Shown here one piece after another: positions 37,558-45,612 of a stretch of DNA of 64,000 nucleotides. This stretch comes from Chloroflexota bacterium (GTDB lineage: Bacteria; Chloroflexota; Anaerolineae; Anaerolineales; Villigracilaceae), in assembly GCA_013388855.1 (NCBI GenBank), contig JACAEM010000004.1:101113-165112 (forward strand). Direction: 5' to 3'. The stretch's first letter is position 1. Each line of letters starts with the position of its first letter. The notes under the pieces were generated by a model, which saw only the letters and a program-made list of their open reading frames with translations, did not search any database and was not told the DNA's origin. A program made the position numbers and the translations under genes.

Positions 37558-40161
37558 ATGAATTTGAACAACTACACCCAAAAATCGCAGGAAGCGATTC
37601 TCAACGCGCAGCATCTGGCGCAGGACTACCACCATCAGGCAATCGAGCCTGTTCATTTATTGTTGGCATTGCTCAATCAGGAGGAGGGCATCGTCCCAGC
37701 CATCGTCAGCAAGGTGGCGGGGAGCGCCGACGCGCTGCGGAACGAACTGGTCCGCGAATTGGAACGCCGTCCCAAGATTCACGGATCGAATGCCGAGGTG
37801 GGGCTGGCGCAGCCGACCGCGGACGTTCTGCGCGCCGCCGAGCGGTATGCCAAAGGGATGCAGGATGACTACGTCTCGACCGAACACATCTTGCTCGGCT
37901 TGACCGAATCCATCGAGGGCAAACGTCTCGCCTCTTTCGGTTTGACGAAGGATGCGATTCTTTCCGCCCTGAAAACGGTTCGCGGCTCCCAGAGAGTGAC
38001 CTCCCCGAATCCCGAATCCACCTACCAGGCGCTCGAACGCTACGGGCGCGACCTGACCGCCTACGCGCGTCAGGGCAAACTCGACCCTGTGATCGGGCGC
38101 GATGAGGAGATTCGCCGCGTCGTCCAGATTTTGACGCGCCGCACCAAGAACAATCCCGCGCTGGTGGGCGAGCCTGGCGTCGGCAAGACCGCCATCGTCG
38201 AGGGGTTGGCGCAGCGCATCGTCAAGGGCGACGTGCCAGAAGGTCTGAAAAAGAAGCGGCTGGTTCAACTCGACATGGGCGCGCTCATCGCGGGCGCGAA
38301 GTATCGCGGCGAGTTCGAGGAACGTCTCAAAGCCGTCCTCAAGGAAGTGACCGACGCGCAGGGCGAAATCATCCTGTTCATTGACGAGATGCACACCGTC
38401 GTCGGCGCGGGCAAAGCCGAAGGCGCCATGGACGCGGGCAATATGCTCAAGCCCATGCTGGCGCGCGGCGAACTGCACATGATCGGCGCAACCACGCTGG
38501 ACGAATATCGCAAGAATATCGAGAAAGACCCCGCGCTGGAACGGCGCTTCCAGCCTGTGATGGTGGGCGAGCCGAGCGTGGAGGATACGATTTCGATTCT
38601 GCGCGGACTCAAGGAACGTTACGAAGTGCATCACGGCGTGCGCATCACTGACCCCGCCGTGATCGCCGCCGCGACTCTCTCGCACCGCTACATCGCCGAC
38701 CGTCACCTGCCCGACAAAGCCATTGACCTGATTGACGAAGCCGCCGCCCGCTTGCGTACGGAGATCGACTCCAAGCCGCAGGCGTTGGATGAGGTGGACC
38801 GCGCCATCATGCAGTTGGAGATCGAGCGCGAGGCATTGAAGAAGGAAAAGGACAAGGCGTCGAAGGAGCGGCTTGCCAGCCTTGAAAAGGAACTCGCCGA
38901 TTTGCGCGAGAAGTCGAAGGGTCTCTCCGCGCGCTGGCAGACTGAAAAGCAGGCGATTGCCGAACTCCGCGCGCTGAAAGAGAAACTCGAACAGACTCGC
39001 GTCGAGATCGAACGCGCCGAGCGTGAAGCGAACCTGGAACGGGCGGCGCGGCTGAAATACGGCGAACTGCGTGAACTCGAGCAGAAGATTCAAACCGCCG
39101 AAGCCCGCCTGAAGACCATGCAGAGCGAAGGCGCGCTGCTCAAAGAGGAAGTGGACGCGGAGGAAATCGCCGCCATCGTGGCGCGCTGGACGGGCATCCC
39201 CGTTTCGCGCCTGCTCGAAGGCGAGACGCAGAAATTGATTCACATGGAGGAGCGGCTGCATCAGCGCGTCGTCGGTCAGGACGAAGCGGTGAACGTGGTC
39301 TCGAAAGCCGTGCGCCGCGCCCGCGCAGGTCTGCAAGACCCGAACCGCCCGATTGGTTCGTTCATCTTTTTGGGACCGACGGGCGTCGGCAAGACCGAAC
39401 TTGCCCGCGCCCTGGCGGAATTCCTGTTCGATGACGACCACGCCATGATCCGCATTGACATGAGCGAGTATCAGGAAAAGCACACGGTCAGCCGTCTCAT
39501 CGGCGCGCCGCCTGGCTACGTCGGTTATGAGGAGGGCGGGCAGTTGACCGAAGCCGTCCGCCGCAGACCGTACAGCGTGGTGCTGTTCGACGAAATCGAA
39601 AAGGCGCATCACGAAGTCTTCAACGTCCTGCTGCAACTGCTCGACGACGGTCGCCTCACCGACGGTCAGGGGCGCACCGTGGACTTCCGCAATACGGTCG
39701 TCATCATGACCAGCAATCTGGGAAATGAATTGTGGCAAGGCGAACGTGACACTGTTACACGTGACACGGTAACACGGATGCTACAAAAGCACTTCCGTCC
39801 CGAATTCCTCAACCGCATTGACGAGATGGTCATCTTCCATCCGTTGAGCCGCGAACACCTGACAGGCATCGTAGACATCCAACTGCGCCGCGTCAGTCAA
39901 CTACTGGCGGACAAGGGCTATCGGCTTGAGGTCAGCGAAGCCGCGCGCAAATATCTCGCGGAGGTCGGCTACGATCCCGACTTTGGCGCGCGTCCGCTCA
40001 AACGCGCCATCCAGCGCGAACTGCAAGACCCGCTCGCGCTCAAGATTCTGGCGGGCGAATTCCGCGAGGGCGATGTGATTCAGGTGGATAGGGGTAAAAC
40101 TGAATTGACATTTTCCGCTGCCGCGCAGGGAGAGGTAGTGGAAGGAGAGGTGGTGGCGTAA
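37558..40161 (+). CDS. clpB: ATP-dependent chaperone ClpB
   Basis: Two AAA+ modules (GEPGVGKT and GPTGVGKT), a long coiled-coil middle domain and a Clp N-domain. Confidence 0.97.
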
Positions 40162-40165
40162 AGCA

Positions 40166-40200
40166 AAACGTCCCGAAGGCTTTGTTCCTTCGGGACGTTT
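40166..40200. terminator. bidirectional intrinsic terminator between clpB and gatB
   Basis: AAACGTCCCGAAGG / CCTTCGGGACGTTT form a 14-bp stem with A/T runs on both sides. Confidence 0.8.
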
Positions 40201-40201
40201 C

Positions 40202-41699
<1,498 letters not shown>

Positions 41700-41707
<8 letters not shown>

Positions 41708-41795
41708 AGTCTGATGGTCTGGTAGTCTGTTAGTCTGATAGTCTGATAGTCTGATGGTCTGATAGTCTGTTAGTCCGATGGTCTGATGGTCTGGC
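41700..41795 (-). repeat. tandem octamer array (about 11-12 units of RGTCTGNT; ATCAGACY on the mRNA strand) abutting the gatB start codon
   Basis: The units were counted directly from 41708: agtctgat ggtctggt agtctgtt agtctgat x3 ggtctgat agtctgtt agtccgat ggtctgat ggtctggc. The gatB ATGAGACC is itself a unit variant. Confidence 0.9.
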
Positions 41796-41805
41796 TGTTG
41801 GACAG

Positions 41806-41833
41806 TAATTGGTAATTGGTAATTGGTAATTGA
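41806..41833 (-). repeat. tandem heptamer array TAATTGG x4 (CCAATTA on the mRNA strand), gatA-gatB spacer
   Basis: The sequence is taattgg taattgg taattgg taattga, read directly. Confidence 0.9.
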
Positions 41834-41837
41834 CCGC

Positions 41838-41886
41838 CGACCGCAGACGGACGACCGTTTATAATGCGGTCTGCGGTCGGTCGTCC
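41838..41886 (-). other. GC-rich permuted inverted repeat giving two overlapping alternative helices just after the gatA stop
   Basis: CGACCGCAGAC (41838..41848) pairs with GTCTGCGGTCG (41869..41879). GGACGACCG (41849..41857) pairs with CGGTCGTCC (41878..41886). The two helices cross, so they are mutually exclusive or pseudoknot-like. No U tract follows. Confidence 0.6.
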
Positions 41887-41890
41887 ACGG

Positions 41891-43351
41891 TCATAGGTTC
41901 GGAGTTTGTTTGTGCCAGTCTGTCACTTGCTGGTAGGCATGAGCAGCTTGGAACAGGGTTGCCTCGTCCAAGTGTTTGCCGATGAGTTGCATCCCGACGG
42001 GCAGGTTGTTGGAAAAGCCGCAGGGCAAGGCAATGGCAGGGACGCCAGCAGGGTTGGTCGCAACAACATAAATATCCGAGAGATACATTTCGAGCGGGTC
42101 GCTGGTCTTTTCGCCGAGTTTGAAGGCGGTGGTGGGACAGGTGGGGGCGAGGAGAAGGTCCACTTTGGAAAAAGCAGACTCAAAGTCACGGCGAAGAAGC
42201 GTGCGGACTTTTTGCGCCTTCAAGTAATACGCGTCGTAATATCCCGCCGAGAGGGCATACGCGCCCAGCATGATCCTGCTCTTGACCTCATCGCCGAATC
42301 CTTCGCGGCGGGTTTGGAGGTAGATGTCAATCACGTCCTTTGCGCCCTCCGAAACGGAGAGACCGAAGCGCGTGCCATCCATGCGGGCGAGGTTGGCGCT
42401 GGCTTCGGCAAAGAGCAGCAGATAGTAAACGGGCAAGCCGTATTTGGTGTGAGGGAGCGAGACTTCGTGAATCTCCATGCCGAGTTTTTCGTAGGTGCGA
42501 ATCGCTTCCTGCAGCGCAGACTCGACTCCCGCCTCCATGCCTGCGACGAAGTATTCCTTCGGGATGCCGAGTTTCATTCCCTTGACGGGCTGGTTGATAT
42601 GTTGTGTGTAATTAGGGACTGGGAATTGGTAGGTGGTGCTATCGTGCGGGTCGTGACCAGCGATGTGTTCGAGGACGGTGGCGCAATCGTAAGCATCCCG
42701 CGCCATGGGACCAATGCAATCGAACGAAGAGACAAGCGCGATAAGCCCGTAGCGCGAGACGCGTCCATAGGTTGGTTTGATGCCTGTGACGTTGCAAAAC
42801 CCTGCAGGCATGCGGACCGACCCGCCCGTATCTTCGCCGATGGTGAATGCCGCGAGACTTGCCGCCATGGCTGCCGCCGCGCCTCCGCTCGAACCGCCAG
42901 GGACGCGCTCCAAGTCCCAGGGGTTGTGGGTGTTGAAGAAGGCGGAGTTCTCGCACGAAGACCCCATGCCGAATTCGTCCATGTTGGTCTTGCCGAGGAG
43001 GACGGCGCCTGCCTCTGCGAGTTTATCGGTGACAGTGGCGTTGTATTGGGGGACGTAGTTTTCGAGAATCTTCGACGAGCAGGTGGTACGGACGCCGCGC
43101 GTGGAGATGCAATCCTTCATCGAGAAGGGAATGCCCGTCAGCGGGGTAACGTTCTCTCCTTTGGCGATGCGCTCGTCGGCTTTCTGCGCCTGCTCGAGGG
43201 CAAGTTCTTCCGAGACCGTGACGTAGGACCTGACCTTCGGGTCAATTTCGCGGATGCGCTGAAGAAACGCCCGAGTCAACTCGACAGAGGAAACCTGCCT
43301 GGCGATTAGTAACTGGTGAATTTCTCGAATTGTGAGTGAGTGGAGTTGCAT
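41891..43351 (-). CDS. gatA: Asp-tRNA(Asn)/Glu-tRNA(Gln) amidotransferase subunit A
   Basis: Amidase signature GGSSGGAAAAMAA and typical length. No Shine-Dalgarno sequence is visible upstream. Confidence 0.95.
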   Translation of the reverse strand: MQLHSLTIREIHQLLIARQVSSVELTRAFLQRIREIDPKVRSYVTVSEELALEQAQKADERIAKGENVTPLTGIPFSMKDCISTRGVRTTCSSKILENYVPQYNATVTDKLAEAGAVLLGKTNMDEFGMGSSCENSAFFNTHNPWDLERVPGGSSGGAAAAMAASLAAFTIGEDTGGSVRMPAGFCNVTGIKPTYGRVSRYGLIALVSSFDCIGPMARDAYDCATVLEHIAGHDPHDSTTYQFPVPNYTQHINQPVKGMKLGIPKEYFVAGMEAGVESALQEAIRTYEKLGMEIHEVSLPHTKYGLPVYYLLLFAEASANLARMDGTRFGLSVSEGAKDVIDIYLQTRREGFGDEVKSRIMLGAYALSAGYYDAYYLKAQKVRTLLRRDFESAFSKVDLLLAPTCPTTAFKLGEKTSDPLEMYLSDIYVVATNPAGVPAIALPCGFSNNLPVGMQLIGKHLDEATLFQAAHAYQQVTDWHKQTPNL

Positions 43352-43360
43352 GGCAAAGGG

Positions 43361-43388
43361 TAATTGGTAATTGGATATTGGTAATTAG
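43361..43388 (-). repeat. tandem heptamer array (TAATTGG TAATTGG ATATTGG TAATTAG), gatC-gatA spacer
   Basis: This is the same heptamer as at 41806..41833. Inverted CCAATTA-like copies lie at 43439..43463 in the same spacer. Confidence 0.85.
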
Positions 43389-43466
43389 AGTCTGAAGAAT
43401 GAGATGATTGATTGGTCAAGTAACTGGTGCAAAATCGCCCAATTACTATTTACCAACTACCAATCT

Positions 43467-43763
43467 CTATTCCTCTCCCAGAACCGTCGGCACTTTGATA
43501 TAGCCGCGCTCCGATTGCGGCGCGTTCTTGAGGAATTCTTCGCGGCTCATCGAATGTTGCACAACATCCTCGCGCAGCACGTTTTCGGCGTTGGCAATGT
43601 CCGAGGCGGGCGGGACGTTCGTCGTATCCACTTCGTTGAGCATGTTGAAGTAGTCAATGATGGAGGAGAACTGTCCGCTGAAGGTTTGCGCTTCCTCTTC
43701 GGAGATGCCGAGGCGGACGAGGAAGGCGATGTGTTTGACGGTTTTGGTATCAATGGTTGTCAT
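43467..43763 (-). CDS. gatC: Asp-tRNA(Asn)/Glu-tRNA(Gln) amidotransferase subunit C
   Basis: 98 aa. Contains MTTIDTKTVKHIAFLVRLGISEEEA...FNMLNEVDT, typical of GatC. The start was set at ATG 43763. Confidence 0.9.
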   Translation of the reverse strand: MTTIDTKTVKHIAFLVRLGISEEEAQTFSGQFSSIIDYFNMLNEVDTTNVPPASDIANAENVLREDVVQHSMSREEFLKNAPQSERGYIKVPTVLGEE

Positions 43764-43776
43764 AAGAGCCTCTAAA

Positions 43777-43803
43777 CACAAAGGACACAAAGTTCACAAA
43801 GAG
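43777..43803 (-). repeat. tandem 9-mer array CACAAAGNN x3 (NNCTTTGTG on the mRNA strand), aspS-gatC spacer
   Basis: The sequence is cacaaagga cacaaagtt cacaaagag, read directly. Confidence 0.8.
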
Positions 43804-43848
43804 TTAAAAGAGTTTTACTTCGTGCCCCTTGTGCTCTTCGTGTTTAAA

Positions 43849-45612
<1,764 letters not shown>

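Follow-up and report, generated by a model that had tools for sequence, protein, structure and literature searches.

The gatB gene of the window (the whole stretch of 64,000 nucleotides of DNA that was analysed) is preceded by an array of 11 tandem octamers that runs in phase into its start codon. We read this array, with about as much confidence as doubt, as a local instance of a class of intergenic 7–8-nt tandem repeats spread across an Anaerolineales clade, serving at gatB as a translation initiation leader that is unstructured, independent of a Shine–Dalgarno (SD) sequence and expanded by slippage. A conserved SD-less, A/C-rich leader with a phase of 8 nt (ACUA in the register of the AUG), which travels with gatB within the family, would have been expanded to 11 units, and the copies beyond the first few may be neutral. 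The AUG would then be located in a long single-stranded tract free of start codons, since the G-poor repeat cannot fold, and the 30S subunit could load directly onto this tract, probably assisted by ribosomal protein S1.

The three gat genes are arranged as gatC, gatA and gatB on the mRNA strand. The spacer between gatA and gatB is 183 nt in length and is made wholly of repeat modules. The features of the locus, in window coordinates, are as follows.

43776..43801: 9-nt repeat upstream of gatC, 2.9 copies, T/G-rich on the mRNA, then a GAGG motif
43467..43763, minus strand: gatC, 98 aa, GatC domain (Pfam)
43359..43386, minus strand: four AATTACC-type heptamers, ending 7 nt upstream of the gatA ATG
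41891..43351, minus strand: gatA, 486 aa, Amidase domain (Pfam)
41839..41892, minus strand: strong RNA hairpin of inverted heptamer-like GACCGMC units, overlapping the gatA stop codon
41805..41832, minus strand: four perfect AATTACC heptamers (GTAATTG on the plus strand)
41708..41795, minus strand: octamer array, 11 in-phase units, consensus ATCAGACT/ATCAGACC on the mRNA plus one-mismatch variants
41700..41707, minus strand: ATGAGACC, nucleotides 1–8 of gatB, an in-phase one-mismatch variant of the unit
40202..41707, minus strand: gatB, 501 aa, GatB_N and GatB_Yqey domains (Pfam)

Following the gatA stop codon the spacer thus begins with the hairpin, which is not followed by a T-run, and continues as the AATTACC block (41832–41805). 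After a further 9 nt it forms the octamer array, read from 41795 down to 41708, the last unit of which directly abuts the gatB ATG (41707–41705). The sequence-only reading had described the octamers within the 183-nt spacer; that description stands, with the correction that the remainder of the spacer, comprising the hairpin and the four AATTACC units, is likewise built of repeats. No SD-like motif lies between the heptamers at 43359..43386 and the gatA ATG. Short tandem repeats precede all three gat genes, and an SD-like motif is kept only at gatC.

The array itself is returned by Tandem Repeats Finder at 41701–41793 with a period of 8, 11.6 copies, 84% matches and a score of 123. A double-unit pattern allowing up to two mismatches gives 11 matches in the window, all located at the array, compared with 0.09 expected from shuffles, and 11 such matches were reached in 0 of 100 shuffles. 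On these two grounds the array proposed from the sequence alone is real, and its proposed phasing with the start codon is borne out, the units running up to the base that precedes the ATG. The register continues into the gene, so that the start codon falls inside it; ATGAGACC was correctly recognized as a unit variant. The base composition on the mRNA strand is 38% A, 32% C, 16% T and 15% G. There is no ATG, GTG or TTG within 41708..41795, and the consensus ATCAGACY octamer contains no stop codon in any of the sense frames. The motifs GGAG, GAGG and AGGA are all absent from positions −20 to −4 of gatB, in agreement with the earlier statement that the gene lacks an SD sequence, and within the array GGA is found only in one ATCGGACT unit. 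A search of 40000–45000 against Rfam at E values up to 1 gave two matches, both at chance level; one of these, a miRNA model placed on the array, was rejected with 20.9 bits against a gathering score of 90.

The genome, that of an uncultured member of the Anaerolineales, comprises 4.03 Mb in 46 contigs (99.2% complete, 54% G+C). It was searched in full with Tandem Repeats Finder for non-overlapping arrays of 5–9-nt units in at least 3.5 copies, and genes and start sites were called with our own simple codon-usage caller (3551 genes, 90.6% coding). The census contains 80 arrays, chiefly of 7-mers and 8-mers. Forty-seven of the 80 are mostly intergenic, against 9.3% of the genome that is non-coding (p = 5e-28), and 44 of these 47 sit between co-directional genes. 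Miscalls probably account for a part of the 33 arrays that were scored as coding. A real coding case is an in-frame heptamer array of the TCAGTGA/TCAGTCA type inside hemC (L081:1752-1804, 7.6 copies), which adds to the C-terminal domain a peptide that repeats an ISDQSSV-like motif; the hemC frame ends with ITNYQ, the peptide that is encoded by the AATTACC repeats of the gatA–gatB spacer.

Further arrays of the ATCAGACY unit, which the sequence-only reading had suggested looking for, are found before the genes for hemC, a HemY-like oxidase and a hydrolase. Two of these are about as long as that at gatB, and shorter ATCAGACT arrays precede hemC and occur elsewhere in the genome. A heptamer array of another family is listed with the two long ones.

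C17:147451-147544: ATCAGACT array of ~12 units before a HemY-like amine-oxidase gene
C4:127554-127646: ATCAGACT array of ~12 units before an alpha/beta-hydrolase gene
L090:1558-1588: TAACTGA-type array (AGTTATC on the plus strand, 4.4 copies), ending 4 nt before the ATG of an ABC-transporter gene

The genes behind ATCAGACT arrays start with ATGAGACT or ATGAAACT, which are again variants of the unit. Some other arrays of the octamer unit contain ATG variants. The genes downstream of the octamer arrays (gatB, hemC, the HemY-like oxidase and the hydrolase) have no common function. The genome further contains unit families based upon AATTACC, AACCTTCC, CTCTCTA, AGAGAATT, the TAACTGA type and GTACACAG; in all, at least six families besides the octamer behave as it does. 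The sense strand has less G than C in 29 arrays as against 13, and the corresponding figures are 20 and 5 for arrays with an end no more than 20 nt from a start. Two properties of the class count against the preferred reading as a general rule: the sense strand is G-rich in 13 of 42 arrays, and many arrays occur as inverted pairs, G-rich in the 5′ arm and C-rich in the arm by the start, that would form a hairpin and so do not fit a general unstructured role.

Support for an initiation leader comes from the relation between arrays and SD motifs. An SD-like 4-mer was defined as GGAG, GAGG or AGGA at −20 to −4, and genome-wide it is carried by 1552 of 3538 predicted starts. Among the hexamers that precede starts AAGGAG shows the strongest enrichment; the anti-SD is deduced from this alone, because no 16S rRNA gene was found in the genome. 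Where an array ends 10 nt or less before the start, the 4-mer is present in 2 of 15 cases and absent in 13; where it ends 11–20 nt before the start, the 4-mer is present in 9 of 11 (Fisher p = 0.0009). Arrays that reach the start therefore occupy the place of the SD sequence, and both gatB and gatA belong to this class.

The initiation regions concerned are also predicted to be exceptionally open. The predicted folding energy of −60 to +20 is −0.3 kcal/mol for gatB and −1.2 kcal/mol for gatA, against a genome median of −14.9 kcal/mol, which places gatB within the least-structured 0.2% of 3538 genes. For the 26 array-preceded genes the median is −6.05 kcal/mol (Mann–Whitney p = 1.3e-7). When the whole spacer is folded, pairing is predicted only in the hairpin that follows gatA. 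By its missing SD sequence and its predicted lack of structure the gatB leader thus fits an SD-independent, structure-free initiation region. According to the available text of Scharff et al. 2011 (PMC3121790), mRNAs that lack an SD sequence can be translated if they are locally free of structure, and according to that of Yang et al. 2014 (PMC3879156), initiation is enhanced by ACA and C/A-rich motifs. The genome encodes an S1 homologue with four S1 domains.

The leader of gatB was compared in two sets drawn from 80 GatB loci. The first comprises 41 loci numbered up to L048, with GatB 63–89% identical; L028, L035 and L046 were left out as having no gene start, and L041–L043 and L047 do not form part of the set. 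The consensus of the last 27 nt before the ATG in this set has ACTA at −27, −19, −11 and −3, and the G content of the last 30 nt is 13%. GAGACY is present in 21 of the 41 loci and an SD-like 4-mer in only 4. At least two in-phase units are found in 22, with an overall range of 1–12 units (12 in L034, 7 in both L011 and L017, 3 in L006). The pattern holds irrespective of what lies upstream, be it gatA, some other gene or one in divergent orientation. The second set comprises 29 of the loci L049–L080, 51–67% identical, the truncated L054, L057 and L059 being left out; none of the 29 has two or more in-phase units, and 14 carry an SD-like motif. The phased SD-less leader is therefore a clade-specific state of gatB, of which the 11-unit array is an expansion. 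The comparison of repeat number among relatives that had been proposed at the outset has thus revealed related leaders in the closer set.

The main rival is that the array is neutral or selfish simple-sequence DNA, so that gatB is translated despite it and not through it. Slippage or a spreading mechanism would seed 7–8-nt arrays in spacers, and they would persist only in positions and orientations that give rise to neither a harmful structure nor an SD motif, a stop codon or a false start. Much in the distribution of the arrays is in keeping with this. Three tandem ATCAGACY units (up to three mismatches) are present in 15 of the 41 genomes searched; within the genus, 10 of 24 congeners carry them, and the number of matches per genome runs from 0 to 219. 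The reversed-pattern control is void for this unit, which when read backwards gives a rotation of itself and so matches the same arrays. Three tandem AATTACC units (up to two mismatches) are found in 42 of 201 genomes of the order, belonging to 11 of 18 families, with 64 matches in the present genome against 0 for the control. Six genes that carry ATCAGACT arrays in relatives were followed into this genome, and the orthologue is free of an array in five of them; the sixth carries an array of another unit family. Several of the array-free orthologues have an SD-like motif instead. Long arrays are therefore dispensable. They come and go, the gatB leader being the kept exception, and this ready gain and loss weighs against the preferred reading. 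The diversity of unit families, the unrelated functions of the downstream genes, the variation from 1 to 12 units at gatB between species and the presence of a heptamer array in frame inside hemC all point the same way. Eleven units also far exceed what a landing pad would need, and the biases of orientation and position could reflect purifying selection alone, with arrays surviving where they are harmless.

The same reading does not explain why the clade as a whole retains the leader at gatB. The phased SD-less leader is kept there despite differing upstream genes, an SD-like motif is present in 14 of the 29 more distant relatives, and the SD sequence is missing exactly where arrays reach the start. 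The gatB gene is essential in bacteria without GlnRS or AsnRS, so that the array must be at least compatible with efficient initiation. Neutrality accounts for the turnover and for the diversity of units, and on balance we consider it a serious but rather less probable explanation of the array at gatB.

The association of the unit with start codons extends beyond this genome. Three exact ATCAGACT units occur at 76 loci in a species-level genome collection; by title 51 of these are Chloroflexota, 6 are given only as 'bacterium' and 19 belong to other phyla, mostly Bacteroidota. On the ATCAGACT strand 26 loci have an open frame whose ATG start falls −8 to +14 nt from where the array ends on its 3′ side, compared with 4 on the opposite strand (p = 6e-5). 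Only 2 of the 26 start-abutting loci are among the 19 from other phyla. These 19 include L109, L127, L168 and L174; the Bacteroidota with three units comprise a Chitinophagaceae MAG (four loci), Neolewinella, Lewinella, Fluviicola and Flavobacterium, and the three units are likewise present in Verrucomicrobiota, Planctomycetota and Gammaproteobacteria.

The regular phase raises another possibility, that ACUA/GAC repeated every 8 nt forms a multivalent platform for an oligomeric RNA-binding protein, which would repress or activate initiation at gatB and the other array-preceded genes. In favour of such a platform are the strict 8-nt phasing in the register of the AUG that is conserved across the gatB leaders of relatives, the size of the four longest arrays of the octamer kind (11.5–12.1 units) and the strong orientation of arrays towards start codons. 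The TRAP sites of Bacillus trp leaders consist of 9–11 GAG/UAG triplets with spacers of 2–3 nt, and the gatB array resembles them in placing about 11 phased short motifs over a translation start. It differs from them in that the spacing is 8 nt and not 5, the array is not gene-specific and the genome has no TRAP homologue: PF02081 (TRAP) matched nothing in the 99.2%-complete genome but did match Bacillus subtilis as a control. CsrA (PF02599) likewise gave no match in this genome. CsrA-regulated leaders carry GGA motifs that overlap the SD sequence, according to the available text of MacGregor 2015 (PMC4679880), and here GGA is confined to the single ATCGGACT unit. The same text proposes S1, Csp or CsrA-like binders for analogous heptamers.

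Further points speak against the platform. Several unrelated unit sequences behave alike, the downstream genes share no function, orthologous genes lack arrays, and tandem duplication yields phasing automatically. The suggestion of the sequence-only reading that the array is a TRAP-like platform specific to gatB is not upheld, given that the octamer precedes unrelated genes, that at least six other unit families are similar in behaviour and that neither TRAP nor CsrA was found. A platform of a more general kind is unlikely, and the conserved ACTA phasing in relatives makes an RNA-binding protein possible. In the most far-reaching form of this idea the SD sequences of gatB and of dozens of other genes would be replaced by phased 8-nt or 7-nt leaders that a dedicated multivalent RNA-binding factor recognizes, be it S1 with its four domains or some oligomer, with the strength of initiation set by the number of units; this too we regard as improbable.

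A gene for a PF05635 protein (23S rRNA intervening-sequence protein) at L083:2129-2835 is flanked by three large octamer arrays: upstream lie a G-rich one of 14.5 copies and its complement, and downstream one of the AACCTTCC unit with 9.6 copies. The cluster around a second PF05635 gene (L085:2741-3205) also holds three octamer arrays, the nearest about 880 nt away. Across 41 genomes the number of PF05635 genes shows no relation to array abundance: the array-rich G014 and G020 have 7 and 6, and the array-free G011, G016 and G017 have 9 each. These genes, which sit beside big arrays, therefore lend no weight to the platform.

The organization of the spacer bears on a different mechanism, in which ribosomes or 30S subunits that have terminated at the gatA stop codon would stay on the mRNA, diffuse along the tract to the gatB AUG and re-initiate there, coupling the synthesis of GatB to that of GatA across 183 nt. 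The 128 nt from the hairpin to the AUG contain no ATG, GTG or TTG, and a promoter and terminator scan of the spacer found neither promoter-like nor terminator-like sites. Translation of gatA ends at a TGA that shares the frame of gatB, and across the spacer (41708–41893) 61 codons follow without a stop in that frame. The location of 44 of 47 intergenic arrays between co-directional genes is also consistent with such a slide. Against it, a strong hairpin stands immediately after the gatA stop codon, the leader follows a divergent promoter region or another gene in many relatives, and other octamer arrays hold ATG variants. Re-initiation by diffusion is accordingly a very unlikely source of GatB.

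Other readings of the spacer were set aside. A promoter that would generate a leaderless gatB mRNA from the last units was not adopted, because the scan found no promoter-like site, and a small bridging reading frame was rejected for want of a start codon in the 128 nt before the AUG. The sole GTG of the spacer sits just past the gatA stop codon and, as read from the sequence, opens a frame of nine codons. Read-through of the single TGA codon of gatA would yield a GatA–GatB fusion with a repeat-encoded linker; the open frame is probably a side effect of stop-free repeat units.

The array is the same in independent data. Three contigs align with the window across it without gaps and with complete identity: one of 651 nt from run X4 (41426–42076), one of 337 nt from X7 (41669–42005) and one of 257 nt from the metatranscriptome (RNA) run X15 (41540–41796), which may stem from contaminating DNA. 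No insertion or deletion is listed in the spanning contigs of these three other public runs, from three studies; contigs lose rare variants, and they cannot show RNA or transcript ends. None of the 92 contig ends of the genome is periodic at lags of 5–12 at the chosen threshold, and there is therefore no sign that arrays break the assembly. Since the contigs of the three other runs are identical, the array is neither an artefact nor visibly hypervariable.

Two observations were not counted as evidence on this genome. In X5 the contigs break inside the array, and part of that run has no contig bridging it. One contig from X7 joins 41698 to 41913 and skips the sequence between, with about 10% differing letters in gatA; it probably represents a related, co-occurring organism in which the gatA–gatB spacer is different or absent.

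A phase-variable contingency locus, in which frequent gain and loss of units within the population would switch or tune gatB expression, is highly improbable, the contigs of the three runs being identical, although contigs may miss rare variants. A tandem repeat does sit at the start codon and its unit number varies between species, yet gatB is a housekeeping gene, and an 8-nt unit outside the reading frame is unable to switch frame. The hypervariable tract envisaged in the sequence-only reading holds for the range of 1–12 units between species and not for the three other runs, which are identical across the array. The artefact that the same reading had allowed for is extremely unlikely: short-read assemblers may collapse or invent repeats and the X5 contigs do break within the array, but the independent contigs from X4, X7 and X15 cross it without one difference and other species hold related arrays at the same position.

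The closest known system is the TAACTGA repeats of MacGregor 2015 (PMC4679880), heptamer direct repeats that the available text of that paper places in marine Beggiatoaceae, some Cyanobacteria and Bacteroidetes. Judged from this text, the arrays described here resemble them in being intergenic and built of tandem short units, mostly facing a start codon and ending a few nucleotides from it, with the SD sequence usually missing, many loci per genome and unrelated downstream genes. Both systems are scattered unevenly among relatives, and the candidate binders discussed for the heptamers are S1, Csp and CsrA-like proteins. The two differ in several respects on the same basis. TAACTGA stops all three frames, whereas the consensus ATCAGACY octamer is stop-free in the sense frames; the present array has 11–12 units, compared with 2–6 TAACTGA units in a Beggiatoaceae genome; the host belongs to the Chloroflexota, many unit families coexist in it, and a phased leader at gatB extends across the clade. 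Since the unit is the octamer ATCAGACY and not TAACTGA, the array is of the same kind without being the same repeat. The words 'Chloroflexi', 'Anaerolinea' and 'octamer' do not occur in the text of MacGregor 2015 (PMC4679880), and a full-text term search of a limited literature collection yielded no paper on such arrays from Chloroflexi or Anaerolineae. At L090, however, the TAACTGA-type array uses exactly the heptamer that is known from Beggiatoaceae, cyanobacteria and Bacteroidetes.

Other systems share single features with the array. It resembles the C/A-rich and ACA enhancers (PMC3879156) and structure-free initiation (PMC3121790), so far as the available texts describe them, in placing an A/C-rich unstructured sequence before the start; those enhancers are single short motifs beside an SD sequence, whereas here a tandem array of 88 nt stands in its place. 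Two further comparisons concern repeats as such. The STRR sequences of heterocystous cyanobacteria, reportedly described by Mazel et al. in 1990, are said to be short tandemly repeated repetitive heptamers. Like the present class they form dispersed intergenic families of tandem short units, and unlike the octamer array they are heptameric and cyanobacterial; we know of no reported rule that ties STRR to start codons. The omega leader of TMV contains three ACAAUUAC direct repeats and a CAA-rich tract, and enhances translation in E. coli too. The block of four AATTACC units before the octamers reads as a repeated CAAUUAC, which we take to be nearly the omega repeat. Both leaders are G-free, and omega is the leader of a plant virus; a literature search for the motif found no paper that contains it.

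The gatB array is thus a real example of a little-studied, already described class of short repeats. What is new is the phylum Chloroflexota, the octamer unit and an essential gene with a conserved phased leader. The class now has quantitative handles: arrays that reach the start lack an SD motif while those that stop 11–20 nt short keep it, starts that follow an array rank with the least folded of the genome, and the gatB clade keeps an SD-less leader phased at 8 nt, in contrast to the SD-like motifs of about half of the distant relatives. From these follows a testable hypothesis, that structure-free leaders built from repeats could be an alternative device for loading ribosomes. Should the arrays be inert instead, they illustrate how much junk can be tolerated in the initiation region of a bacterial gene.

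Some minor features were encountered at the gatB loci of relatives. Fragments of the 3′ or 5′ end of gatB are duplicated at L011:5085-5165, L032:5090-5194, L020:130-213 and L030:3001-3129. In L011, L032 and L020 the duplicate lies about 650–700 nt from the intact end of gatB, as if something had inserted there, while in L030 a duplicated N-terminal fragment overlaps the main gatB match. An insertion or intein in the 2.1-kb gatB match of relatives was considered and rejected, the match being explained by short duplicated end fragments about 650 nt from the gene. A 6S RNA gene (Rfam RF00013, 74.7 bits) is located at L004:7763-7939, about 3.3 kb downstream of the gatB of that relative.
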